NCBI GenBank assembly: GCA_035221665.1
Contig: CM069131.1
Coordinates: forward strand, 88,536,001 to 88,600,000
Direction of reading: 5' to 3'
From: Okamejei kenojei
Taxonomy: Eukaryota
DNA: 64,000 nt
Both the position numbers and the translations under genes were made by a program. The notes beneath the pieces were generated by a model. The model was not told the DNA's origin. It was given only the letters and a program-made list of their open reading frames with translations, and did no database searches. How positions within the stretch are numbered: the stretch's first letter is position 1; each line of letters opens with the position of its first letter. Positions 22,101 through 64,000 of the stretch are shown piece after piece.

Positions 22101-22616
22101 GCTGTTTGTTGACAGGGTATTCCTGGACAAATCTCCTCTTTGTCAGGTGGAATACATTGTTGAACCATTGGAGCATTACCTGGATCTCCAGTACAAACCT
22201 TCAGAGGCACAGCAAGGATATAAAACTGGCCCCAAGTTCATTTTAAATAATAATTCTTGATATCGTGGAGTGAACTGAATTGACTGAAAACTGGCTTAGC
22301 ATGCAAAATAAATAGCTCAATTATTACACAACCAATAGATCAAATGAAAGCTTTGTACCCTGGCCACATTTAGTCGTGATTGAAAGCAGACAATTAACAG
22401 CTAAAAGGAAGGGGAGGCTGCAAGAATATTTTCATCTTCTTTGATGGTGGGAATTCGCCTGCGAGCACTAAAAACGAGCCATATAAATCATAGCCACGTG
22501 CAGTCCACAGTACTGAATAAATGATCCATCTCTTTTTCTTCCTGAAATCCCCACCACCACAAAAAAACAATCTCCTGCCAATTAAATTCACTGAAAATGA
22601 TAGCAAAGGACAGGAA

Positions 22617-22794
22617 NNNNNNNNNNNNNNNNNNNNNNNNNNNNNNNNNNNNNNNNNNNNNNNNNNNNNNNNNNNNNNNNNNNNNNNNNNNNNNNNNNNN
22701 NNNNNNNNNNNNNNNNNNNNNNNNNNNNNNNNNNNNNNNNNNNNNNNNNNNNNNNNNNNNNNNNNNNNNNNNNNNNNNNNNNNNNNNNNNNNNN
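22617..22794. other. Assembly gap (178 N)
   Basis: Run of n. Confidence 1.
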
Positions 22795-22959
22795 CTGCCT
22801 ATCACCCCCACCCCCACCCTCCCTCTGTTGGGTCCCTCTATTACTTGCCAGGCTTCATGCTGCCACTCCTCTTCCAGCATTCTCTTCACCACCCCACCCC
22901 CACCGCAATCAGTCTGTAGAAAGGTCCCAACCAGTAATGCCACCTATCCATGATACACC

Positions 22960-45950: not shown

Positions 45951-47036
45951 ATGTCGATCCCAGCTGTCGCATCGTCATTTCGCCGTACACGGCGCCCCTG
46001 CATGCCTCTGGTTAGTTAACGGCAGTCAGTTCACTAGCCAGTGTTTCAAAAACTTTGCTCAACGATGGGATTTTCGTCATGTCACAACAGTCCAGAATTC
46101 CCACAGTCAAATGGACTTGCAGAACAGGCTGTCCAGATGCCAAGCAATTAACAGAGCGCCCACACCTTGCCAAATCCGATGTCTACCTGGACCTGCTCAA
46201 CTTAGAAACATCATCCGTGACCCAATACTGGGTTCTCCCGCCCAACGCCTGATATCCCAACAGACCTGTGCTGTACTGCCTGTGCCTCAACAACTATTGC
46301 AACCACAGGTTTGTTCACCACTTGCTGTACAGAAACAACTCCAGCTGAAACCTGCTAAACCTGCAGCTGCAGACCAACCATTGGTTGTGTCTCCAGCTTC
46401 CTCACCACCACGTTTGGTGCCCCGCTTGCCTGCCTCGCCATGTTTGTCCCCGGGTCAACAGTGCTCCCGCCGCATGGGACCCCGGCAATCTCGCCGTTGA
46501 AGGGAGGAGCTATACCGTATGCGCGCGACGGGTTTGTAGGCCACCCCATAGATACGGGGATTTTGTTTGAACCATTTGTACTTCCCTGTATGTGCTATTA
46601 GCATTTTGGGTACTGTTTTAATCAGTCAGCACCTGGTAATGTGTTTGTTCATATATATCAGTTTATTTTAGAAGTGTCTCAATTTTTATTCTTACAAGGA
46701 AAGATGTAGATTGGTTACTTTACTTACTAACCAATGTAATGTTTTATTATTATAAGCTGCGTCTACTACCAACATTCATATTATCGCAACCTGACATGTG
46801 CTGCCAGTCAGTGCTGCCATACAGTAGATGTAACATGCTGTAGTGTGTAGTATGCGTTACTCAATAAATACTGTTGTACCAGTTCAGTGAGTATGTTTGA
46901 TTCATTCAACAGCATCTACTTTTGCGAGCTTTTTGAGCATTATCTCACTTCAGGTGTAACATGCATTCAGCAGATTTCTGTTAAATTGATGCAACCAAAA
47001 CTTTGATTCTTGATGTGGTCTATTTGAATGTCTTAC

Positions 47037-47216
47037 CTCAAAGAGATCAGATGAGTCAGAGCCATAATGATTGGAAATTATTTCCGATTGGTCACTGTAC
47101 CACTTGAGTCCACCTAGAAAATTTTCTGTGTCCAAGTCATTCACATCGAGCTCAGAAAGGTCAAGTTCAGGGAGATCTGAACACAGAGGCTGATCTTCAC
47201 CTACTAAGGCAGCACA
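47037..47216 (-). CDS. PPARGC1A: PGC-1alpha exon 2 (CAALVGEDQPLCSDLPELDLSELDVNDLDTENFLGGLKWYSDQSEIISNHYGSDSSDLFE), acidic activation domain
   Basis: ttttcttcacag acceptor, GAG|GTAAGA donor, 180 nt, phase 0. Near-identical to the recalled PGC-1alpha exon 2 peptide. Confidence 0.97.
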
Positions 47217-50200
47217 CTGTGAAGAAAACAGAACACACTTTAAGATGATTTACTTTACTGAGAAACATTACCTAAGCAGTTCACTACAGCAGTAACCACT
47301 AAGAATTTTCAGCACCTTGCCAAACAATGTTCAGGTTCAGAGTGCCCATGAGATTACTCTTAAGAGACATCCAAGAACGATTTGCGTTACTACCCTTTAG
47401 ATTTTGTTCCTGTTTTATTTTTCAGGTAATTACCTTTGAATTTGAAAACCAAGCTTCAAAGAGAAGTTATTTTTAAATGCTCTCCATAGATTTGTTCAAG
47501 GGTGCATTCATAATAGTGAGGATAAAAGAAGAAGCAAAAAGATACATTGCAACAGAAGGAATGATGGACCTCATGCTTCCACCAAAGAACAAACTTCATT
47601 AGTAACAATTGTTAATGTTGGCATTTTTTTTGGAGATTTTTTAAATAACTGAAGTTTGGAAAAAATGTCTAACCGCACCATTTTGGTTGCAATAATTTTC
47701 CAAGCCATCTCTTGCAACTTGATAAAAGCAATTTATGTTAAAGTGGTTTACTATCAGTATATGCTACCGAAAAGAGGCCAACGAGTTTGGGACTAGGATT
47801 GCACTTCTATTATCCAGAAACTTATCAAATAGTTGCTTTACTAACATCTAAATGGCAAAATACTTCCATCATTTGCTTAGTTTTGCCCGTTTGGTGAATT
47901 GACAATATAAATCAGCTTTTAAATGCTCACTGAGATTAGGAAATTAACTTAAGGAAATTGGGAGTAAAACAGCTGTCCAGATATTCATGTGTATCTCATT
48001 GCCATATCTACACAGTAGTACTAAGCTACTGATTCTTAAATTTTAAACTTCTTTCACATTGCATGATGAACAGTATTGCGTTGTGTTATATTATAAAATA
48101 CTTTCTTAAAATGGAGGCTTTGCTCCATATAATCTAACAGCACAGATTTTTGAAGTGAACATAGCTTGGTCCCAAATGCTTTAACAGTAAATAACCTTGG
48201 ATTCAATTGTGCTGAACTGGATCTACTGGCCAGTCATCACTTGTCATTTCTGCATTTCTGGAATGCATGTGGAGAGCCTATTTCACTGGTCAGCTGCACC
48301 CTTGACTCCTACAGTGTGGTCCATGTGATCCCTTGGCAGCAAACAGCCTGGGGTGGAGGCATCACTTCCAAATTACCCCTGACAACCTCAGCCAGAAATC
48401 AAGCTGGGCACGGAGCTTTGTCATCCATCAATGCTGTCTGCTTTTTAAATGTCTCTGAGATTAATAACTATTAAAATTGAAGTGCCGTTATGTAAAAATG
48501 ATACCACAAGCAAATGATTTATACCACAAAAACACTTGGAACTAACTAAAAGCATTAATTAACAATATAATTTGTTTAAAATTATGTTCCTGTTTGTCTC
48601 CTAAACTGCAGACCTCGAATTCCCATTAAAATCAATAAGGCATCAGATGCTTTGCCAAGGCTGACCTGGCATGGGATCCTAGTGGTGGTTCCCCAGTTTA
48701 ATACAGGGGAATCCCTGCAAGGTTGTGTCCCGCTTTTGGAGTGAATGCACAGTGCAGTGGCAAAACAAACCAGCTGGCTCATCTCCTGCCCGATCCAGAC
48801 CGTGCTGAACTGCTATCCACAGCCAGCTTGGCTTGGCTGATGTTTCTCAGTATTTGTCTTTAGACAATTATTTAACGATCAAGCAATGCACAAAGATGTC
48901 TTTATTTCCTGAGCATTGTTCAGTTTCCAGTTTGACATGGTATTTGATGGTTAAAGCCACTGAATGATAGCAGCTTCAGGAAAGGACTGCAGAACTCAAT
49001 TCAGTGACATCAAAAACCCAGAGAGCTGACCACAATTCACTACTCCCCATTCATAAGTAATATCACTAGAACACCACTTTAATATATCACAACATGGGGA
49101 GTTCCACAGAAACCACTTGTGCTCAAGATGCACCTACACAACATAAATCAGGAAACCCAGGGTCATAGTCTGGCTACAACATTTACGATTATGTGATCAT
49201 TCCACTGGTCTGATCCTTTTCTAACTAAAATTCCAGATTGCATAAAATAGGTTAGATTTTATAACAGAGATCAGAGATTGAACAAGATTGCCTGTTACAC
49301 ATCATATTCACCTTTGCCCCTAATGAATTTCAAGGGCAATCGAACAATAATTGTCCACAACACCAGTTTATACTGTACCTCCATTATAAAATTCAAAATA
49401 TACACATGGTACAAATATACATATGATACATTCTTATAGGATTGATATTTTCCCAAAATCTGCTGCCCTTCAAAAATAAAGGCTTCAATAGGTTATCGGC
49501 AAGATTACAAAATATACTTTTAATGAATCACATTAAATGTTGCACTCTTCCCCTTGTTCACTCACAAATCGAACACATGACAGAAGAAAAGCAAGTTTGC
49601 AAACGGACTGACGAAAAAACCATGGCCAAAATCCATTATTTGAACAAACCACTCAGCTGCTTATAAACAAATAGAACCTCAGGGGCATCAAGATGTCAGT
49701 GGTGAAAAATGTACATAGTGTGTGTAGTTGCGAAGCATAAATATAAGAAGCATGCAATAATACAAATGCACTTCGTACGCATGCAAAAATATAAAAGTAT
49801 TGGAATGCAACAACAAAAGCACATGAATGATTATACATCTTCTGCTTCATGGAACATAATATTAATTCTAAAAATGTGTCTCGTGGTTAGTTGCAACCTT
49901 ACTGCCAAATGAATATTTCTGTAGTGGAACGTGAACACCTAAAACCCCCTCGCTGAGCCAAAAACGTATGACAGGCATACACGGGAGAGCAGCTGTGAAC
50001 CTGCCTGCTTTTTTTTCATGAATTGTTCCCATGCAGGTGATACAGATTTGATATATTAGTGCCTATTTTTACACCTCCAGCAGCAGCGTATTCATACAAA
50101 CAGACTGAAGCAGTCACATTCCTAGTGTGGATTGTGTGAATCTTATGGTTGGAAGGGAGTTATTTGGGAGGTAAGCTGTGAAACCTCAAAATAATTAAAT

Positions 50201-50731
50201 TTGGAACATTATCAGCACCGTAACAATTACATTTTTTTTAAATAAAACGCATTGTTCACACATTGAGCTAAGATATCTAATTGACTCAAACACATTGTTG
50301 ATGCACTTCCAGCAGATTTCCAAATGACCAGCAGGATTTTAGGTTATAACTGGATCTTGACACAATTGTTTCAGAAATGAGAATTAAAATAAAAGAAGTT
50401 ACTGTCACTTTCCACAGCATTGAAAATCACATGACATGTGACTGCATTCCAAATGAAGGAGGCAGATAAACAGATGATGGAATTTCTATCCTGCTTAAAA
50501 TACTTCAGAGAAGTTTTACGTTGAGGTCACAAAAAAAAGTTCAACAAAGCCAGTTCATCTTGAAATATAATAAAAGCATCAGTCTACTTGCCTGTGGCAT
50601 TGCCTCAATCAATTATTGGTAGAACAAGTTCAGGACAGTTGAGGTTTAGGTGAGTACACTTTTAAGTAGTATTCTCTGATCATTCCTACTTATTCCTGCT
50701 GCAAAGATCACTGAATCGTGTTACTGCTCAC

Positions 50732-50779
50732 CTCTGTTTCACTCCACTCAAAGCTTTGGTTGCACCTGTCCCGCTCCAT
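50732..50779 (-). CDS. PPARGC1A: PGC-1alpha exon 1 coding part (MERDRCNQSFEWSETE)
   Basis: Minus strand reads gagctga-ATG GAG CGG GAC AGG TGC AAC CAA ... GAA ACA GAG|GTGAGC. 48 nt, phase 0. Resembles vertebrate MAWD(M/R)CNQ..W..E and lies directly below a conserved promoter. Confidence 0.9.
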
Positions 50780-50791
50780 TCAGCTCGTGGC

Positions 50792-50848
50792 TTAAAATCT
50801 CAATAAATCCACACACACACACAGGCACACACACACACACACACACAT
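50792..50848 (-). other. Short uORF (18 codons) ending 12 nt before the main ATG
   Basis: ATG 50848, MCVCVCVCLCVCVDLLRF*, TAA at 50794-50792. Confidence 0.6.
50810..50847. repeat. Interrupted (CA)n/(TG)n microsatellite in the PPARGC1A 5'UTR
   Basis: Two CA runs separated by 'gg', read directly. Confidence 0.95.
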
Positions 50849-51564
50849 AGGCGCACACCCACACCCACAGAAAGCACATGTGTGGTGCCGGCCCCATACA
50901 GAGATTGAACTGAAGGCACCTGACTTACTACTACACTAACGCTACTGTTTAGTATCACATGACAAGGTTATTAAAAGTAGCTGTGCTGTCAGTCAGAAGT
51001 ACTGTTCCATGATAAAACAAATGACGTATTAAGAGGGTGGAGTTACAAAGTGCAGTCAATCTTTAAACTACTCAACCTTTGAGTCTTCAGACCCAGGCTG
51101 TGATTAAATCCACTGTTTCAAGGCACACCTTTCATTAGCATGCTACAGATAAAGAAATTCACTCGTAAAATAACCTACTTTTATAATCTTGAAATACTTT
51201 ATAGAACATGAGATAAACACTATTACTGTAATTGTAAATTGACTTTTACTATATTTTGTAAAATCAGAAGCTTGTTTCATAAAACAGCATTTGTAGAGAT
51301 CACACAATACAAAATGCTTTTATTATGTATCCCTTTCCCACTTTACACACAATGAAACTCATACGAATTGTAACGCTGAAGTATCAAACTAAATAAATAA
51401 ATATGAATCTTGTTTTTCTCTGTTAGGTGGAGACACAAATCAGATTTCCATAAATTCATTGAAGATCATCTGACCACGTACTTCACCGAAACATACACAC
51501 TTCAAAAGGAACATAACAAAAAAGCACAGCTCATCTGTGTTGATAGTCAAAATACTGTGGTACA

Positions 51565-53330
51565 ATAGAACATAGTACATAGAACAGTACAGCACAGAAA
51601 CAGGTCCTTCAGCCCACAATGTCCATGCTGAACAAATGCCAAGACCAATTCTTTCTGCCTGCACATAATCCATATTCCTTCATTCCCTGCATATTTATAT
51701 GCCTACCCAAAAGTCTCTTAAATGCCACTATCGTAGCTGCCTCAACCACCACCCCAGGCAACATATTCCGGGCACTCACCATCCTCTGTGTAAAAAAACG
51801 TATCCCACGCATTTTATTTAAAGTTTGCCCCTCTCACCTTAAAGCTTAGCATTTATAGACAATAGACAATAGAAAACAAGTGCAGGAGTAGGCCATTCGG
51901 CCCCTCGAGCCAGCACCGCCATTCAATATGATCATGGCTGACCATCCACAATCAGTACCCCGTTCCTGCCTTCTCCCCATATTCCTTGACTCCGCTATCT
52001 TTAAGAGCTCTGTCCAGCTCTCTCTTGAAAGGATCCAGAGAACCGGCCTCCACCACCCTCTGAGGCAGAGAATTCCACAGACATTTGATTTTTTGACTGT
52101 CTACCCTTTCTATGTCTCTCATAATGTTATATACTTCCGTTAGTTCTCCACGCAAACTGTAATTCCAGAGAAAACAATCCAAGTCTGTTCAACCTCTACC
52201 AATAGTTCATACCCCCTATTCCAGACATCATTATGGTAGACCTCCTCTGCACACTTTCGAAAGCGTCCACATTCTTCTTGTAATGGTGTGATCAGAACTG
52301 CATGCAATATTTCAAATGTAGCCTAACCAACATTTTGTAACCAAACTCGCAGACTTACTGCAGCATTTTGGGTCTATCTCTGTCATTTCTCCATCCATTT
52401 CTACAGCAGATCTATATCCCACTGTATACTTTGACAGCCTTCCTCGCAATCCTGGACCCTGGCAATCTTGGTGTCATCTGCCAACTTACTAACTAACTAA
52501 CTAATGGTCACAGACCTCCAACGGGAATATTGTCCTTCAACCCCAACCCCCTCTGCCTTCTATGATTAAGGCAATTTTGAATCCACATGACCAAGTCACT
52601 GTAAATCCTGTGCATTTTAATCTTCTGGATCAGCCTACCATGGGGGACGTTATCAAATCCCTGCAAAAAACATCCACCTAGTGTCATTGATCACCTTTGT
52701 TACCACTTCAAAAAACTTGATCAAGTTTGTAAGATATGACCTGCCATGTACAAACCCATGTTGACTGTCTCTAATAATCATAAGATCATGCGAAAGGAGT
52801 GGAATTAGGCCATTTGGCCCATCAATTCTACTCTGCCATTCAATCATTGCTGATCTACCTCTCTCTCCTCACCCCGTTCTCCTGCCTTCACCCCAAACCT
52901 CTGACACCTGTATTAATCAATAATCTATCTATCTCTGCCTTAAATATATCCACTGACGTTGCCTCCACAGCCTTCTGTGGCAAAGAATTCCATAGATTCA
53001 CCAACCTCTGACTAAATAAATTTCTCCTCATCTCCTTACTAAAAGAACATACTTTAATTCTTTAATGAGTTCCCCTCATTCTTCCAAACTTAAGCGAATA
53101 TAGGCCCAGTGCTGTCAAACGCTCATCATATGTTAACCTACTCTTTCCTGGGATCATTCTTGTAAACCTCCTCTGGCCCTCTTCAGAGTCAGCCCATACT
53201 TCCTCAGATATGGGGCCCACTATTGCTCACAATATTCCAAATGTGGCCTTACCAGCGCCTTATAAAGCCTCAGCATTATATCCCTGTTTTTGTAATCTAG
53301 TCCTCTTGAAATAAATGCTTGCATTGCCAA
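51565..53330 (-). mobile_element. Nested CR1 LINE fragments just upstream of the promoter
   Basis: RFFTQRMVSARNMLP, LWNSLPQRVVEAGSL, RDSQHGFVHGRSYLTNLIKFFE; at least three 3' ends (~51565, ~51855, ~52780). Confidence 0.85.
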
Positions 53331-53343
53331 CATTTATTACTTA

Positions 53344-54314
53344 CTAGACTAAGTGGGACCCATTTGGTCCCTGTCACACAGGAGGCTTGGTCCCCAAAGC
53401 AATATTCCACCACTCACCCATAGCCGCCAACTGCACAGGCACAGCTCATTTCCCCTCCTCCCTAGCACTCTCTCCCCCTCCTCTTCGCCCTCCCTCTTCT
53501 TTCCCCTCTCCGCCTCTCCTTGCCAATCCCTCCCTCACCTCTCGAGGTTGCCCAGGATCCCGAGGTTGCTGCTCCTCTCCCTTCTTGCATGCCCTGGAGG
53601 AGCATCAGTCGTCAGCCTTGGATCCTTGGCTCGGTCCGGATGCACCAGTAGCTATGGCCGCCCTGCCATGTGGGTGGGGGGAGAGAGCTTGGAGAAAAGA
53701 CAGGGAAGAGCCATGGGTGAGAGGGGGATATCACGGGGAGGGAGGCAGGAGCCAGCGAGGGGAACCAGAGGGGAGGGGAAACCAGAGGGGAGGGGAAGGG
53801 GCTGGAGCTGCGGGGGATAGCGATGGCAGTGCATTTGGAACTCACTGCGGGCGCTGGACACTCTCCTCCACCGGGATCAGACTCTCTGCTTTCCGCTTGG
53901 CGACATCTCCGACTCCGCTCTGCGTCGCGCCTGGCCGCTTCCAGTCCCTCCGAAAATCATGTCCAGTTGGAGACATCCGCCGGCCACCCGCAGCGTCCCT
54001 CAGCTCCAGTAAAGACGTGATGGTACAGGAAGGGGCGGACCGTCCCGGGGAGTGACAGGGGAAGAGACCAATCCGTGTGGCGCTGACTGGCAGGAGAGAA
54101 GATCAATCTGCACACGCGCGGTTTTTACGATTTTTAAACCTGGCTAACTTTTACAATATACTACCAATCGGAATTGAACTTGTTGCACTCGCACACAGGA
54201 GAACCGTGAGTGAGCTGACGAAACATTGTCGAACTCTCACATACCGATTTTGCGCAAATAGAAAAACCACGCAAACCGGAAGAGCACAAGATCAGAGTTT
54301 TAGTTATGTATAGA
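53344..54314 (-). mobile_element. Non-autonomous Helitron (971 bp)
   Basis: Minus strand A|TC...CTAG|T with no TSD; subterminal hairpin gggacc cattt ggtccc about 10 nt from the 3' end. Confidence 0.82.
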
Positions 54315-55689
54315 TTACTTAAATAAAAATATGATGAACTTTGACTTTCAAGGTTTTAAACTGGCAGCTGAGATGCAATATCTAAATTAACTTTCTCACC
54401 CAGGATGAACATGATAGGCCAAGTGGCCCCATTCAGGGCTGTAAACATAAAGATTCGCATGATATTGTGACTCCAACCAAGAAGTTTATATATTTTGCAT
54501 TCTCGTCCAAAAGTGCAAGATAATTCTTCTCATTATTTTTACATGTAATTCTATAAAATCACATTGAGGGTTTGATCATGATATTCACCAACTACGACCC
54601 ATAACTGTATATTAATGCTTATTGAATGTTTTCTTTTCTCACACACAATGATTATCTAGATCATCCTGATCCGGTTATAAATCCCCACCGCGCATCAACT
54701 CATCAAAGGATAATTGTACCTGGAAGTCAATGCTGACAGTACACTTGCTCAAAAGTGAAATTCACTTTGTCAGAGAGTCGGTCACCTTTGTTTAAATGGT
54801 CTAATTTCAACTGAGACTAACATGTACAAGCCTAAGCTTTCCAGTGCTATCCAATTACTCTCACTGGATATGGAGGCGTGAAGACCTTTCAGTACATTTC
54901 AAAGTGGCATCATTTAAGCCTCAGAACAAGTTGTTGATCTCTCAAATGTGATTGCTCAAGGAAAATAGAAGGCTCGCGTTTATTCTGTTGTCATGCTTGT
55001 CCCCTCTATTGATACAATATTGTACTCATCATCATTTTTGCATTATTTTTTAAAAATAATACCTGCATAAAAATAGCACACATGAATGCAGTTCAAATAC
55101 ATAAGCATTTGATCATGAGATTCAACAATCACAAGTTTAACTCTCATTTATTTTTGTATGGCTTATGGCCATATTAACATTCAGTTTTTACAGAGACTAT
55201 GTTCATGCAAAATTGGCCAAATCAGAGAACAGTAGTTGGAAAGGTTTTAAAATAAGGTTGATTTTAATCTTCTGTGATATGATAGGCACCAAGTGTTTAA
55301 TTATCTGTTGAGCCGCAAATAGAACTCAACATTTATCAGCACTTCTAGACTTAGAATTGAAGGAGAATTGTTGGTGAAGCAGCTGAAGATATCTGAGCTG
55401 TTGGGAGTCAACCTGAGAAACCCCTGATATAAATGGTGTTAAATGCTTATTCTCCAACAATCACAATTCACACCGATCTGAGTGTACTTGGATGGTACAT
55501 TTGGTCAAATGCCGTATTGCGTCAAAGGCTGTCGTTCTTATACCTCTGAAATTCACCTCTTTTGACCATGTTTGGAGGAAGTCTGCAAGGAGGTTTGGAA
55601 TTGAGTGGTCACTTAGGAATTTCAACTCAAGATCAGTGGACAGATTATTGGGAGAAATTGATGCTTAAGGAGAGACCATGTTGCCTTTA

Positions 55690-55862
55690 ATGACTTTCAT
55701 AAATATTCAAAGTGGCAATTTTCTTAAGATAGACATATGGATATGCAGAGAATGGAGAAATGTGGATCACATACAGACAGAGGGATTTGTTTACTTTGTT
55801 TGGCATGGATATTCTGGGCTGAAAGGCCTATTCTTGTGATGCACTGTTCTATATTCTATATT
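55690..55862 (+). mobile_element. CR1 3'UTR remnant
   Basis: gggctgaaaggcctattcttgtg...tgttctatattctata. Confidence 0.55.
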
Positions 55863-56377
55863 CTTTTATGTGGTAGCCAATAGCCAGATTGAATTTGTTA
55901 TGTTCATTTGAGAAGCTGGAACCATAGATCCTAAGAACTTGGTGGGACCTAGAAATATGCAGTGCTTTCTAAGTAAGAAAACATCCAAAGGCATTTAGAG
56001 GTGCATTTTCAAACATACTTTTTTGTTAAAAATGGACTTTTGCCTTCCCAATATTTGGGAGATTTCTGTGGGACATTACCACTGCAAATTGGACTGACCA
56101 ATAAACCAACCAAGAAGAAGTCTGACAACTTTAGAAAGTAGAAAGGACATGACACGTGGTGGTGAGTATGAACTAGTTGGCATCAATGTACATGTCGAAA
56201 ATGACAGTGTGATTTCAAATGATAAATCTAAGAGATAGCAGGTAAATGAAAAAGAGGATGCAGCTAAGGCTAAATTCTCAGGGCAACATTAAAACTAACA
56301 GTGCATGGGAAGGATGAGAAGCCACTGAAGTTGATTCGCTGGCTACAAATGAACAGGTAACAGTGGATTGAGAGAAT

Positions 56378-56630
56378 GATAGACACAAAATGCTGGAGTA
56401 ACTCAGCAGGACAGACAGCATCTCTGGAGAGAAGGAATGGTTGACGTTTCGGGTCGAGACTTCTTCAGAAGGAATGGATGACGTTTCGGGTCGAGAAGGG
56501 TCTGAAGAAGGGTCTCGACCCGAAACATCACACATTCCTTCTCTCCAGAGATGCTGCCTGTCCCACTGACTTATTCCAGTATTTTGTGTCTATCTTTGCT
56601 TTAATCCAACATCTGCAGTTCCTTCATACA
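56378..56630. repeat. Fold-back Penelope tail (hairpin 56378-56594) with three hammerhead-like units at the apex
   Basis: gatagacacaaaatgctgga...cagcatctctggagagaaggaatg versus cattccttctctccagagatgctg...ttttgtgtctatc. Confidence 0.85.
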
Positions 56631-56881
56631 CAGTGGATTAAGGGAAATGTGTTTCCACAGGGCTAGACATCAGAAGAGCAGCAGTGCTGGAGAATGGAGT
56701 GGTCAGTCATGTTCAAGGCTGTTGAGAGGTCAATTAGGAGCTGGAGAGTTTCTGAGGTTGGGCTGTGATAATGGTGACCGTGAGTTGAAACAGTATGATA
56801 TGGGGCATCAATCTGCCCCTTTACTTGTTTTGGTAAAAATTTTTGTGAATGTTTGGTCTAAGGTGTTGCAAGAGGGGCTCC

Positions 56882-57121
56882 ACCAGCGATCACCTGGCAT
56901 TATCCTACACACGTGGAACTATTTTACAATTAACTGATGCCAATTAACCTACAGACTTGTATGTCTTTGGAGTGTGGTAGGAAACCGGATCACCTGGAGA
57001 AAACCCAAGGGGTCATAGGGAAATTGTAGAAACTCCGTACAGACAGCACCTGTAGTCAGGATCGAACCCGGGTCTCTTGCACTGTAAGGCAGCAACTCTA
57101 CCGTTGTTCCACTGTGTCACC
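56882..57121 (-). mobile_element. V-SINE (HE1-like)
   Basis: gtcaggatcgaacccgggtctc (B-box reverse complement) plus V-domain. Confidence 0.8.
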
Positions 57122-57438
57122 CTCCTTTTTTGTGGTGCTCTATCCCCTGTACCATTCAAATGCTATCATTTTAATTTGTTCTTCTGTTGTAAAAATTCCT
57201 TTCAAAAAATAAAATCTACCAAAGGTGAACATATAAATGAACCAAAACTAATTTCCTTTATGTCAGTTTGCAGATTGCATGATAAGGCTGTTTAACTTTG
57301 AAAATTATACTCAGGACAAAGGTCGGTATCACAGTCTTGAAAATAATGAACCTTGAAGGAATGCTAAACAGCTAAAAGTTGTTAATGCAGTCAATTATTA
57401 CTAAAGTTGCCAAAGTTTTCCTGTATTCTATTCTATCA

Positions 57439-58228
57439 CTAGACTAAGTGGGACCCATTGGGTCCCAGCTTCACACGAGAGGGCTTGTCCCCCAACATAA
57501 TATTCCATCTCTCCACCAATTCCAGTTTTGTGGGGGGGGGGGGGGCTTTCTGGAGTGCTAGCATGGGTGTTGTGGGCCAAAGGGACGTTTCCAGAGGGCT
57601 AGTATGGGCATTGTGGGCCAATTGGATTCTTGGGCTGGCTGCTCAGTCACTCAGGCCTGGCAGCTCAGTAACAAGCCTGGCAGGCTGGCAGCTCGGAAAC
57701 AGCCAGAAATTCTGCCGAAAACAGGTGAGAGACTGTGAGAGAGAAAGGGGAGAGGGTGGACTATCAATTTTAGACATTTTCATCTTTTTTTACAGTTGCA
57801 AAAGGCACACAGTTGCAAAAGGCACACAGTTGCAATAGCCACACAGTTGCACAGGGCACAGTTTAAAAACACATGAAGGGCACTCACAGGTCAGTATTCT
57901 CAGTGTTCTGTAGATTTCCAGCTCAGACTGCGAGTCGTGACCCTCTCCCTCCCCCATCTTGCAGAGACTGAGCCACGCTTCTGGGTTTTATAGCTCGCCC
58001 CCCGGAAGGGGCATGGCCTTCATAGTGTGATTGATAGGAGAGAGAATCTCAACATTTTTTAAACATTAATAAGTCTTTAATTTTTATTGATGGGAAAAAT
58101 CATCTGGCCCTGAAAGCTGGAGGGTGACTGAGTAAGGTGGCCAAAAATCGCAGCCGTAAGTGATCCCGTTTTTTCTAAAATTAATATACAGTGCAAACTG
58201 GTCAAGTTTAGACTTTTAATTATATAGA
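57439..58228 (-). mobile_element. Non-autonomous Helitron (790 bp), different interior from the 53344 copy
   Basis: A|TC...CTAG|T; perfect hairpin GGGACCC-att-GGGTCCC 57450-57466; same 3' terminus as the 53344 copy; internal tandem cacagttgcaaaaggca at ~57790-57862. Confidence 0.82.
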
Positions 58229-58294
58229 TAAATCTTGGCCACCTACTTTCCATTCCACCTTATTATTTGGAAACAAATTAATGTTGGATTTTAC

Positions 58295-58478
58295 TCACGG
58301 GCATTTTTCAGCATGTTGAAAAATACCTAGCTGAGGCCTCGAGTACGCGGGGACTACTCTCGAGCATGAACGAGAGTTACAAAGACCTCCTAGGACCTCA
58401 TGTCGACAATGCTGCGAGTATGAGTCGAGGGCAAACTCAAACTCGCCAATTAGGTCGCCGCAGTGGGACAACCCCTTT
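58295..58478 (-). mobile_element. Partial PIF/Harbinger-like non-autonomous element
   Basis: Ends in cagtgggacaacccc (reverse complement GGGGTTGTCCCACTG); palindrome tttttcagcatgttgaaaaa as at ~7265. Confidence 0.45.
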
Positions 58479-58914
58479 AGGTTCAACATTTTCATGATTT
58501 CAGCTGGCAAAGATTATCAAACCAGATAAAGTATTTATAATGTCCTAAAATAATGAATTCCTTTTGTCAGGAATTGTCTAGGTAGGTTCCCGTGGGTCCT
58601 CAATCGGCAGCGGGCTAGTCGGGCGGGTTCCGGTCCTTGGTGCGAGTCCTCTGTCTGTGCCGGGCAAGTCCCCAGTCTACGTGCTGTGGCTTGCCTCAGG
58701 ATACTCCAGGGGTGTGCCAGGCACATCTCCTCGCTCTGCAGCCGCCCAGGCCCGGTCCCGGTCAGCTCCACGTCGGCAGCTAGGCCCGGTCCAGTACAGC
58801 TGTGCAGTGCTCACCAGGAACTCCCTTCTGTGCTGGTGCAGCGCTTGCCGGAAGCTTCCTTAAGTCCCACAGATTAAAAGCATGAAACCAGCCCTCTAAC
58901 CAAATAATAACCTT

Positions 58915-60320
58915 AATAACCTTTTGTTTGACTCCTCCCATTTCCTCCAAATCCAAGGTTTAGCTATGGGCACGCACATGGGCCCCAGCTATGCCTGCCT
59001 ATTCGTAGGGTACGTCGAACAATCCTTGTTCGAGATGTACCCGGGCCACATCCCTGACCTCTACATCAATGATCGCATTGGTGTCACCTCTTGCACCCAC
59101 ACACAACTCACTGACTTCATCCGCTTCACCACTAACGTCCATCTGGCACTCAAATACACCTGGACCATTTCCGACACATCCCAACCATTTCTTGACCTCA
59201 CTATCTCCATCGCAGGTGATAGACTTCTGACCGACATCCACCATAAACCCACTGACCCATGGCTATCTAGACTACACTTCTTCCCACCCTGCTTCCTGTA
59301 AGGACTCCATCCCCTACTCCCAATTCCTCCATCTACGCCGCATCTGCTCCCAGGATGAGGTGTTCCACACCAGGGCATCGGAAATGGCCTCTTTCTTCAG
59401 GGAACGGGGGTTCCCCTCCCCTACTATAGATGAGGCTCTCAGTGGGGTCTCTTCAATACGCAACACTGTTTTCTCTCCCTATCCCCCCACTCGCAACAAG
59501 GGCAAAGGCCCCCTAGTCCTCACCTTTCACCCCACTAGCCGTCACATACAACAAATAGTCCCCCGTCATTTTCGCCACCTCCAACGTGACCCCACCATTC
59601 GCCACATCTTCCCATCTCCCCCCGTCTGCTTTCCGCAAAGACCGCTCCCTCCGTAACTCCCTGGTCAATTATTTCCTTCCCTCCCGCACTACCCCCTCCC
59701 CGGCCACTTTCCCTTGCAACCGCAAGAGATGCTACACTTGTCGCTTTACCTCCCCCCTCAACTCCATTCAAGGACCCAAGCAGTCGTTCCAGGTGCGACA
59801 GAGGTTCACCTGCACCTCCTCCAACCTCATCTATTGCATCCGCTGCTCTAGATGTCAGCTGATCTGCATCGGTGAGAACAAGCATAGGCTTGGCGATCGT
59901 TTCGCCGATCACCTCCGCTCGGTCCGCATTAACCAACCTGATCTCCCTGTGGCTCAGCACTACAATTCCCCTTTCCATTCCGAATCTGACCTTTCTGTCC
60001 TGGGCCTCCTCCATGGCCAGAGTGAGCACCACTGGAAATTGGAGGAGCAGCACCTCATATTACGCTTGGGCAGTTTGCACCCTAGCGGCATGAACATTGA
60101 CTTCTCCAATTTCGGGTAGCCCTTGCTGTCTCCTCCCCTTCTCAGCTCTGCCTCGGCCCTCTGGCTCCTCCTCTTCCTTCTTCTCCCCCCCCCCCCCCCC
60201 CCCCCCCCCCCCACCCACCCTACATCAGTCTGAGGAAGGGTTTTGGCCCGAAACGTTGCCTATTTCCTTCTCTCCATAGATGCTGCTGCACCCGCTGAGT
60301 TTCTCCAGCACTTTTGTCAA
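58915..60320 (+). mobile_element. Penelope-like element (RT C-terminal part, GIY-YIG, hammerhead-like tail), frameshifted
   Basis: HFLQIQGLAMGTHMGPSYACLFVG, PFLDL, TDIHHKPTD, IYCIRCSRCQLICIGE; CTGAGGA...GAAAC at 60230-60254. Confidence 0.92.
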
Positions 60321-60584
60321 TCAAATAATAGAGACCAGGTGAGATCACTCACAACCACATTTTCTCTCTTTACCACCTCCATCTTCATCTCCATTCATCC
60401 TCTCCTTCACTGACATCCTCTCATTCTTTATATCCTTGCATAATGTCTTCCTTCTTCCCTCTCTCCTCCTCTTTCTAATCTCTGGACCTTCCCCTTTCTC
60501 GTGTTTTATCTCTCTCACATTCCTCTATGGCACTCTGCCCTTTCCTCCCAGAATGATTCACAAACATAATCTCCAATTTTCAGA

Positions 60585-60715
60585 GTCATGGATATGGTTT
60601 TGAGGAATATGGGCCAAATGCAGGCAGGTGGGATCAGTGATGATGGGGCATCTTGGTCAGCATGGACAAGATGGGCCAAATGACCTGTTTCCATGCTATA
60701 TGACTATGATTCTGT
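60585..60715 (+). mobile_element. CR1 3'UTR remnant
   Basis: tatgggccaaatgcaggcaggtggga...cctgtttccatgctatatgactatgattct. Confidence 0.6.
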
Positions 60716-61557
60716 GAACATAGAAATAATGCAAATGTATTAAAGTATAAATGCATCAATCACATGGGCATGGGATTTTAAGGTTTTTTTTTTTTGCACT
60801 GCTTTGGATTGCACTGCAATCTTTGCACCATTCTGCTGTTTCGCATTCATTGTTATGTATATTGTTGTATCTATCATTACCATGTATACTGTTTACTCTA
60901 TGAGCTTCATGCGAACAAGAAATTTCACTGCACCCTGGTGTATGTGACAATAAACTAAGACGATCTGATCTGATCAGTTGTCAGACAAGAATAAAGTATT
61001 CACCTTGCTTCAGGTTCAGCTGTACAATTGTTACTATGGTAGTGAGAATGTAACAGCATTCCCTTCTTTGTTCACAAACCAACCCCAAACATGGAACAAT
61101 AGTTTTGAAACACCAGAGAAGTTGAAACTTTGCTTCTTGAATGAACAGTAGCTTTCTCAGCTTAAGGATATCGAAGTAGTTGATGTCTACCAGTTCAGGA
61201 TAAAAGGAAGCAGGCAAGAACTTTATGACCACATTAACAAGGCATCTGCTGGTGGGTTTCGTCTTGTGATTAATGATCCATTAAACATACCCTAAACTCT
61301 GGTACACATATAGAGTCCATGAGAGATAGGTTACTTGAAGGTTGTAACTTTTATTTCAAAGACCTTGGCAAACTTACTGTTGTTTACTTCCTTAAAAACA
61401 CACAATGGCATGAATGACATTGAAATGCAATATTGCTACCTGGTGTGAATTATGTTAGTAAAATTAAATTGATCTGATTAAACAAGTCTCTTTCCCTTCA
61501 CAAATATTTTTAGCAATGCATACTATAAATGAGCATAGACTGTATTTAACTTCTTAC

Positions 61558-61605
61558 TATTCTAGGGCAATCCAAAATGGAATTCAAAGTGAGGCAGGTT
61601 CCCAT
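61558..61605 (-). CDS. PPARGC1A: Candidate alternative first exon of PPARGC1A (exon 1b-like, MGTCLTLNSILDCPRI)
   Basis: ATG...AGA ATA|GTAAGA, 48 nt, phase 0 and so compatible with exon 2. LNSILD resembles mammalian exon 1b MDSILK. Preceded by TATA, CRE half-sites and an E-box. Confidence 0.5.
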
Positions 61606-61730
61606 GACTTTATTGCACGACAGCAGTAATATTATATCTGTCAGCCAGTCGTCATAACAAGGCTGACTATCGACGCCACAGGACCTCGTCATTACCCTTG
61701 GCTTTTGCCAGTTCTCCCAGCTGTCCGTCC
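61606..61730 (-). promoter_or_regulatory. Candidate alternative (distal) PPARGC1A promoter
   Basis: TATAAT 61636-61631, TGACG half-CREs at 61650-61654 and 61687-61691, E-box CAGCTG 61718-61723, in non-repetitive DNA. Confidence 0.5.
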
Positions 61731-62849
61731 CAATGTTGTACTGCATGATTTATATTGCAGTGAACCAGGGCTGGATATTCTGCTCCAGATTACCTTCACA
61801 ACTATTTTGTTTTGGATTTGTTTTATGAATCCCTCATAATGCCTGTTAGATAAGAGCCTTTTTGTAGTGCAACATTCATTGGCGGTTGTAGTTACAGTCA
61901 GTTTGGCTAGAACAGGTTAATGGGGTTAACTCTGAGGCATTAATTTACACAGGCACAGCAGCGAAAATAAATGCAGAGTTTGTTTTGCCACCAAGCCACT
62001 AACTATATTCTTGTAACATCTCTCTCCTCACTTAGCTAGTGGAATTCAATAGTTCAGAATCCAGGTAAAGAAAACATGACACGGTTGTGAATGTGACGTG
62101 AAACATGGCTCCCTTAAGATGCCATTTTTTTTCTACTGGCAATATTCATACCTTTTGTTTTGGAGATCCATATGCTAGCAGAATATTTAGATATATAAAA
62201 CAGAGACCTGCCATTAACAATGGAACTTTTGAATGTTTACCAGTGGGTAATCTTCAGCTACTTACAGAGTTTTATTTTATTGATGTAGCTTTAATTCCAC
62301 AAATCTTTGGTTGGAATTAATTTTTTAATAAAAACATTCTCTTCTGTTTTTCTGAAACTTTATGCAGTTCCATATATATGTTATAAGGTCAAATGGTACA
62401 GAAATAGGCCCTAGGTCTAACAAGTCCCTCCCAGCTATTTTTTCTCCCCATGCTCTCATTTACTCCCCCCAGATTCAATACACACCTACATACTCAGGGC
62501 AATTTACAGTGGCCAATTAAACTATCAAACCACATGTCCTTGGGAAGTAGGGACACAAGAACATAGAATACAGCACAGAAATGGGCCCTTCGGCCCACCA
62601 TATCCGTGCCGAACATGATATTGTTAAATTAGTCTCCTCCGCCTGCACATGGTAAATATCCCTACATTCCTTGCATATTTATGTGCTTATCTAAAAGCCT
62701 CTTAATTGTCACTGTTACATCTGCCACACAATACTTCAAATGCAGTCTAACCAAAGTTTTATAAAACTGTAACATAACCTCCTGATTCTTGTACTTAAAT
62801 TCCTTACTGATAAATCAGTAAGCTGCTTGGTACCAAGGAACTGGTACCA

Positions 62850-63444
62850 AGGTACCAAGGAACTGATTGTGGACCTCGGGAGGGGTAGGATGGGGACCCA
62901 CAGTCCCATTTACAACAACGGGTCAATGATCGAAAGGGTCAAGATCTTCAAATTCCTGGGCATGCATATTGCCGAAGATCTCTCCTGGTCCCAGAACACT
63001 GATGCAATCACAAAGAAAGCACATCAGCGCTTCTACTTCCTGAGAAGATTACGGAGAATCGGTCTGTCAAGGAGGACTCTCTTGAACTTCTACAGGTGCA
63101 CAGTAGAGCGCATGCTGACCGGTTACATCGTGGCTTGGTACGGCAACTTGAGCATCCAGGAGTGGAAAAGGCTGCAAAAAGTTGTAAACACTGCCCAGTC
63201 CATCATCGGCTCTGACCTCCCCACCATCGAGGGGATCTATCGCAGTTGCCACCTCAAAAAAGTCTGCCAACATCATCAAGGACCCACACTATCCTGGCCA
63301 CACACTCATCTCTCCGCTGCCATCAGGAAGAAGGTACTGGAGACTGAAATCTGCAACAGCTTCCCTACAGCCATCAGACTATTAAACACAACTTCAAACA
63401 AACTCTGAACTATAACAGCCTATTGCAATGTATCTGTTTATTGA

Positions 63445-63511
<67 letters not shown>

Positions 63512-63618
63512 ACACACTGATCTGGTCTGTATTTATGACCACAATATTCTGTTGTGCTGCAGCGATGCAAGAATTTAATTGTCCTATCTGGGACACATGA
63601 CAATAAACTCTCTTGAGT
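62850..63618 (+). mobile_element. Rex/Babar-type LINE 3' fragment
   Basis: TKELIVD, FKFLGMHIAEDLSWS, KAHQRFYFLRRLRR; 3' stem-loop, tgacaataaa and tcttga repeats. Confidence 0.85.
63453..63509. repeat. (TA)n microsatellite
   Basis: Read directly. Confidence 0.95.
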
Positions 63619-64000
63619 CTTGCATCTAAAGACAAGCATACCATGCTTCTATACCATTCTATCTATGTGTTGCCACTTGGGGGGAGATATGAACTTGGTC
63701 CCCAAGATCGCTCTGTACATCAAAGCTGTTTAGGGTCTTGTCATTAACTGTATTCTTTCCCCTTACATCCTTACATTCAACCTCCCAAAGTGCAACAGCT
63801 CACTCATTTGGGGTGAAACCCAAGTAACATACTTAAGTGTACAATTTACTGCAACTAACAGCTTTGTTGTTGTGGTAAACTCCTGAAACAACCATTAAGT
63901 GTATGAATAAACAGAATGCTGTTTCCATATATAGTCACAGCAGAAGTGCAAATTATTTGTTTTCTAAATCACATTACATCTTAATAAACATAGTTAATGG

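Follow-up and report, generated by a model that had tools for sequence, protein, structure and literature searches.

A candidate alternative promoter and first exon upstream of PPARGC1A in the skate Okamejei kenojei

Introduction

Does PPARGC1A, which encodes PGC-1alpha, have in a cartilaginous fish a counterpart of the inducible second promoter that it has in mammals? In mammals, that promoter responds to exercise, beta-adrenergic, or cAMP signals; the primary papers on it are reportedly Miura 2008, Yoshioka 2009 and Chinsomboon 2009. The mammalian promoter combines a palindromic CRE with one mismatch and a MyoD/MRF4 E-box (PMC4410395) and lies 13.7 kb upstream in mouse (PMC4460005), so that the literature bears out the premise of the original prediction, an E-box- and CRE-driven promoter about 14 kb upstream. 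At rest, its exon 1b can hardly be detected (PMC3871455), and the human alternative start is missing from the RefSeq and Ensembl models (PMC8788487). When mice exercise, PGC-1alpha rises mostly through the exon-1b isoforms, and animals that lack these become obese (PMC11254180; for related literature, see PMC5727290, PMC5278221, and PMC9338484).

PMC11971047 reports exon 1b across eutherians, the only group covered by the literature searched, and figures an exon-1b alignment that may bear on the homology claim. 5'RACE applied to pooled resting tissues of chicken places first exons 287 kb upstream, at the canonical position, and in intron 1, with none at about 14 kb (PMC12874118). No exon-1b counterpart in fishes was reported in the literature searched, most subscription papers being outside its reach. 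A working counterpart in cartilaginous fish would, if true, separate the origin of the exercise switch from endothermy; if the candidate exon fails, the site would be an ordinary motif coincidence or an enhancer. The candidate described here is a plausible lead, drawn at present from the sequence of one species.

The PPARGC1A locus and its single-copy island

The gene on the minus strand of the window, by which we mean the whole 64-kb stretch analyzed, is PPARGC1A as judged from its sequence. At exon 2, identity is 98% with proteins of two skates, Rhinoraja longicauda and Amblyraja radiata, 97% with those of Pristis and Mobula, and 80 to 87% with those of bony vertebrates. The main landmarks are as follows.

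62484-60701, no strand assigned: single-copy island holding the candidate, with repeat-like DNA on its flanks (blastn; GC 36.9%, 15 CpG)
51030-50910, minus strand: proximal part of the canonical promoter with the 5' leader; homology to mouse is clear
50779-50732, minus strand: coding part of exon 1a, MERDRCNQSFEWSETE, in agreement with named chondrichthyan N-termini
47216-47037, minus strand: PPARGC1A exon 2, to which the candidate is predicted to splice, starting in phase 0
2350-2156, minus strand: PPARGC1A exon 3, which contains an ATG in frame at 2347

Codon 3 of exon 1a is Arg here and Trp in all nine other chondrichthyan exon-1a N-termini, which could reflect a lineage change or a sequence error. 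An assembly gap, a run of 178 N at about 22600-22800, lies in intron 2.

The candidate was claimed to sit in nonrepetitive DNA, and blastn agrees: the island of about 1.8 kb has no second copy in the 64-kb window. It has no Rfam match either, and the six Rfam matches found in 47000-64000 are all below threshold and all on a TA microsatellite near 63450. A flanking frame at 62773-63405 matches Pfam PF09004, and frames near 59000-60100 have no Pfam match; we take both to be retroelement remnants.

The candidate element

The original prediction listed an E-box, two half-CREs, TATAAT, an ATG, 16 codons, and a GTAAGA donor on the gene strand, and each was found at the place claimed. The map of the element, from upstream to downstream, also includes several features that the prediction had overlooked, namely the one-mismatch CRE at 62101, the TATAAAT at 61754, a rival donor after 61696, an in-frame ATG at 61692, and a 4-codon out-of-frame ORF from 61655.

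62101-62094, minus strand: palindromic CRE with one mismatch, TCACGTCA, 350 to 500 nt upstream of the predicted starts
61882-61878, minus strand: CCAAT motif, from sequence only
61754-61748, minus strand: TATAAAT, the better TATA-like box (7/8 to the consensus), with a predicted start near 61724
61723-61718, minus strand: E-box CAGCTG, a sequence motif
61691-61687, minus strand: half-CRE TGACG in the 8-mer TGACGAGG, overlapping the in-frame ATG 61692 and the rival donor after 61696
61654-61650, minus strand: half-CRE TGACG in the 8-mer TGACGACT, overlapping the 4-codon out-of-frame ORF from ATG 61655
61636-61631, minus strand: TATAAT, the weaker TATA-like box, which predicts a start near 61606 that falls on the ATG
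61605-61558, minus strand: candidate first-exon coding part, 16 codons, MGTCLTLNSILDCPRI, its ATG in good Kozak context
61557-61552, minus strand: candidate splice donor GTAAGA in phase 0, the last exon base being 61558

What is observed is thus a set of motifs in a given order, in single-copy DNA and with a matching phase. The phase-0 donor fits exon 2, which begins in the same phase, and the real donors that follow exon 2 and exon 3 have an identical intron hexamer. The claimed distance of 10.8 kb above exon 1 is also right, the donor lying 10,779 nt from the exon-1a ATG at 50779 on the gene strand, against 13.7 kb in mouse. In these respects the candidate resembles mammalian exon 1b/1b' (PGC-1alpha-b, -c, and PGC-1alpha4), lying upstream of exon 1a and having an E-box, CRE-type motifs, and a phase-0 donor able to join exon 2. 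It differs from the mammalian promoter in that each of its proximal CREs is a half site (3 and 2 mismatches to TGACGTCA) rather than a one-mismatch palindrome, the one-mismatch site lying further upstream at 62101.

Motif frequency against chance

Each part of the element is common. The window holds 44 half-CREs, with 6 pairs within 60 bp, and 32 CAGCTG sites; TATAWAW-type sites occur at 1.6 per kb, and donors equal to the candidate's occur at 2.5 per kb. On an approximate weight matrix, the candidate donor scores 6.1, compared with 9.4 for exon 1a, 10.4 for exon 2, and 6.2 for exon 3, and 162 of the 3,704 GT sites on the strand score at least as high, making it a donor of middling strength by that approximate measure. 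The eukaryotic TATA consensus is TATAWAWR, which TATAAT fits at only 6/8 positions. A bacterial promoter scan, irrelevant here, shows only that TATAAT is the bacterial -10 word.

The combination is less ordinary. The 13 kb upstream was shuffled 300 times, block by block and at the dinucleotide level: the half-CRE pair alone appeared in 85 shuffles, the pair with an E-box in 10, and the pair with an E-box and a TATA-like box in none, this pattern having been defined after the site was seen. A looser pattern (one half-CRE, a TATA-like box, and an equal donor) appeared in 101 of 300. Across both strands of the real 64-kb window, the stricter cluster patterns occur once, at the candidate. CpG clustering on the element is modest, 6 of the 15 in the island lying inside 120 bp (P of ~0.02). 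All of these tests took their shape once the site had been seen.

Intron 2 holds a second half-CRE pair in single-copy DNA (26586-26559, minus strand), one of the two being a one-mismatch TGACGTAA, and this pair may be an intronic enhancer or promoter.

Start sites and coding potential

The two TATA-like boxes imply different transcripts, and neither geometry yields upstream CREs together with a translated exon. From TATAAT, the predicted start near 61606 places the E-box and CREs upstream, as in mammals, and leaves no leader before the ATG at 61605. From TATAAAT, the predicted start near 61724 gives a 167-nt exon with a leader and with the CREs inside the transcript. The frame is open back to an ATG at 61746, as originally described; both predicted starts lie downstream of this ATG, which is probably of no relevance.

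The resulting 63-codon open frame is unremarkable, as 103 of 3,524 stop-to-stop segments reach at least 67 aa. Compared with longer proteins, it gave one candidate and none at an E value of ≤10, and it has no Pfam match. A phmmer search against 1.84 billion representatives returned a single match, P0121 (E value of 1.6e-4), to a mid-protein stretch of a 913-aa protein. As these searches found no clear homologue, we reject an independent small protein gene.

A transcript with a noncoding first exon would need a start codon further downstream. Exon 2 contains only three ATGs, all out of frame, and the first in-frame ATG is codon 2 of exon 3 (2347). This Met is present in 13 of 13 readable elasmobranch proteins and in 0 of 13 chimaera or bony-vertebrate ones, which have Ile or Leu; two further proteins gave no match to the pattern used. 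The exon 3 Met could start an N-terminally shortened PGC-1alpha from noncoding first exons.

Likeness to mouse exon 1b and the canonical promoter as control

The mouse sequence compared was limited to primers printed in papers; the primer tables are in PMC4106048 and the supplement of PMC4460005. These primers cover the 3' end of exon 1b and its first five codons, and the mouse N-terminus has 12 residues, so two published primers together with this length fix the mouse ATG six codons before the segment compared in the original prediction.

The canonical promoter served as a control. A mouse primer from it matches 21 of 25 bases at 50934 (0 of 200 shuffles), a second matches 13 of 19 at the right place, which by itself is nonsignificant, and the chain of both scores 64 against a shuffled 34.7 (0 of 150). 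Because this control was detected, mouse-skate promoter homology is visible with short primers at this locus. The skate canonical promoter has only a half CRE, TACGTCA (51030-51022, minus strand; CGTCA at 51026), and the full TGACGTCA occurs nowhere in the window; the mammalian canonical promoter carries a full CRE (PMC4410395).

Promoter B gave a different result. Six other mouse promoter-B/exon-1b primers, two bisulfite primers among them, have no match at the site, and an ordered five-primer promoter-B chain scores 68 there, below the best score of every one of the 150 shuffles (mean, 79.7). Judged through seven published promoter-B primers, no colinear homology with the mouse promoter B and its exon was found.

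The end of exon 1b is a separate matter. At 61588, 13 of its 19 bases match, a score shared by two other sites in 16.8 kb and equaled or bettered in 199 of 200 shuffles. The rival sites, at 57315 and 54915, have no qualifying donor. Within this stretch, 61586-61573 matches the mouse exon end at 12 of 14 bases, and the skate ATG lies exactly six codons before the match, as in mouse. An exon-end match with an in-frame donor within 30 nt was seen in 112 of 2,000 shuffles, with any ATG added in 57, and with an ATG in the exact mouse register in 2; adding a half-CRE and a TATA-like box to the match, donor, and any ATG left 3 of 2,000, and 0 in the exact register, all the joint tests having been designed after the site was seen, so that their P values are too low by a factor of unknown size. 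With the site taken as given, the P of an equally good match within the exon is ~0.006 to 0.018. None of the 36 other matching sites in the window (15 on the gene strand and 21 on the opposite strand) combines a donor with an ATG. The resemblance of LNSIL to MDSIL, taken by itself, is therefore at the level of chance; it stands out only in combination with the ATG register and the in-frame donor.

The candidate departs from mammalian exon 1b in other respects. There is no GT at the mouse donor position, and the skate donor lies 12 nt further downstream, giving 16 codons rather than 12 although the ATG register and 13 of 19 bases agree. A second donor yielding a 3-residue N-terminus, as in mammals, was not found either, since the single other donor-like site upstream, after 61696, has no preceding ATG in the predicted exon. 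With neither colinear homology nor the second donor found, we do not class the candidate as exon 1b. What stands of the proposed counterpart is the gene identity, the position, and the rare joint arrangement; what does not is any colinear similarity or an undisplaced donor. We also compared the exon end of a named deer model, 1b-like in look, which at the candidate ranks only 658th of 7,001 positions.

Representation in protein models

An exon-2 protein search listed 120 of its 745 matches, 79 of them named, and a second search gave 13 named among 51. None of these 92 named proteins among the matches listed has a candidate-like N-terminus, the best local score being 19, and the candidate exon is used by none of 17 chondrichthyan protein models, which represent clusters holding 109 sequences. 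Such absence is weak evidence, because mammalian exon 1b is almost undetectable at rest and is missing from human models.

Of 17 N-termini of named proteins, mapped onto the sequence upstream of exon 2, just two align with a donor: the canonical one and that of Pristis X4. The Rhinoraja N-terminus maps best at 61746 but weakly (score of 24, no donor), and we took this as chance.

Interpretation of the element

The grades of likelihood given here are judgments, not computed values. We tentatively prefer to read it as an inducible alternative PGC-1alpha promoter of the skate, ahead of a chance coincidence of motifs and of an enhancer without an exon. On the model of the mammalian promoter, binding, transcription, splicing, and inducibility would possibly follow: the two half-CREs would be sites for CREB-type factors, the E-box would attract a factor of the MyoD type, and exon 2 would receive a short first exon, spliced from 61558, instead of exon 1a. 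The motif order favors TATAAT-driven starts near 61606, with almost no leader before the ATG at 61605; such a transcript would be largely noncoding at its 5' end, and the protein might start at the in-frame exon 3 Met. Starts driven by TATAAAT near 61724 would instead give the 167-nt exon, with ATG 61692 or 61605 replacing the 16-residue N-terminus, and would put the CREs inside the transcript.

The main competing explanation, somewhat doubtful in our judgment, is that short, common motifs coincide in ordinary single-copy DNA, at a site picked by a reader aware of the mammalian design, and that no transcript starts or is spliced there. The abundance of every single part speaks for this, as do the exon-1b resemblance, null when taken alone, the missing colinear homology and annotation, and the existence of another half-CRE pair in the single-copy DNA of intron 2; chance would nevertheless have to produce both the motif cluster and the exon-end match with its ATG register, which are separate features and both uncommon, along with the CpG clustering on the element. 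An unlikely reading is that the site is a cAMP- and muscle-responsive enhancer of the canonical promoter and makes no exon, the half-CREs and E-box being functional and the ATG, ORF, and donor incidental. It would draw on the motif cluster, the better supported part of the element, and on the canonical promoter's having only a half CRE, so that cAMP input might come from elsewhere; the silence of the protein models and a TATA geometry that suits a coding exon poorly are also in its favor. It leaves unexplained, however, the exon-end match with the ATG register and the in-frame donor.

Within the promoter reading, which we continue to favor, common descent with mammalian exon 1b is somewhat likelier than convergence, the former being improbable and the latter more improbable still. 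It is likewise improbable, on our assessment, that the element is a true orthologue of the mammalian exercise- and cold-inducible promoter with exon 1b, in which case the ancestor of jawed vertebrates would already have had the two-promoter design, long before endothermy and brown fat, and near-silence at rest would explain why it has gone unnoticed outside mammals. Given the chance-level resemblance, the lack of colinearity, the displaced donor, and the absence of an annotated protein, a jawed-vertebrate origin is without support from a second species.

Other alternative first exons

Alternative first exons joined to exon 2 are known elsewhere in PPARGC1A, both far upstream and as the intron-1 exon 1c of mouse, human, and chicken, and in this the candidate is like them. 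Their N-termini have no resemblance to the candidate, and none maps to it with a donor. Among the 17 chondrichthyan representatives, 9 begin with exon 1a and 8 have noncanonical N-termini: 4 share a far-upstream exon common to teleosts, a caecilian, and a lizard, and 4 have others. The deep conservation of such first exons raises the prior that an upstream exon could be old.

Two alternative N-termini recur widely, and neither is encoded in the scanned part of the window. One is shared by sharks, rays, teleosts, a caecilian, and a lizard (P0005, P0006, P0013, P0016, P0050, P0059, P0112, and P0122), and the second is found in sturgeon, lizard, and seal (P0069, P0083, and P0148). Their recurrence goes against PMC11254180, which states that no variants with other N-termini were found beyond mammals.

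In intron 1 of the skate gene, 50612-50592 (minus strand) encodes LIEAMPQ followed by a GC-type donor, GCAAGT, and 5 of the 7 residues match MIEAMSQ of Pristis isoform X4. Judging from its sequence, this is likely a batoid intron-1 first exon, placed like mouse exon 1c and chicken P3, with its first ATG being TTG here.
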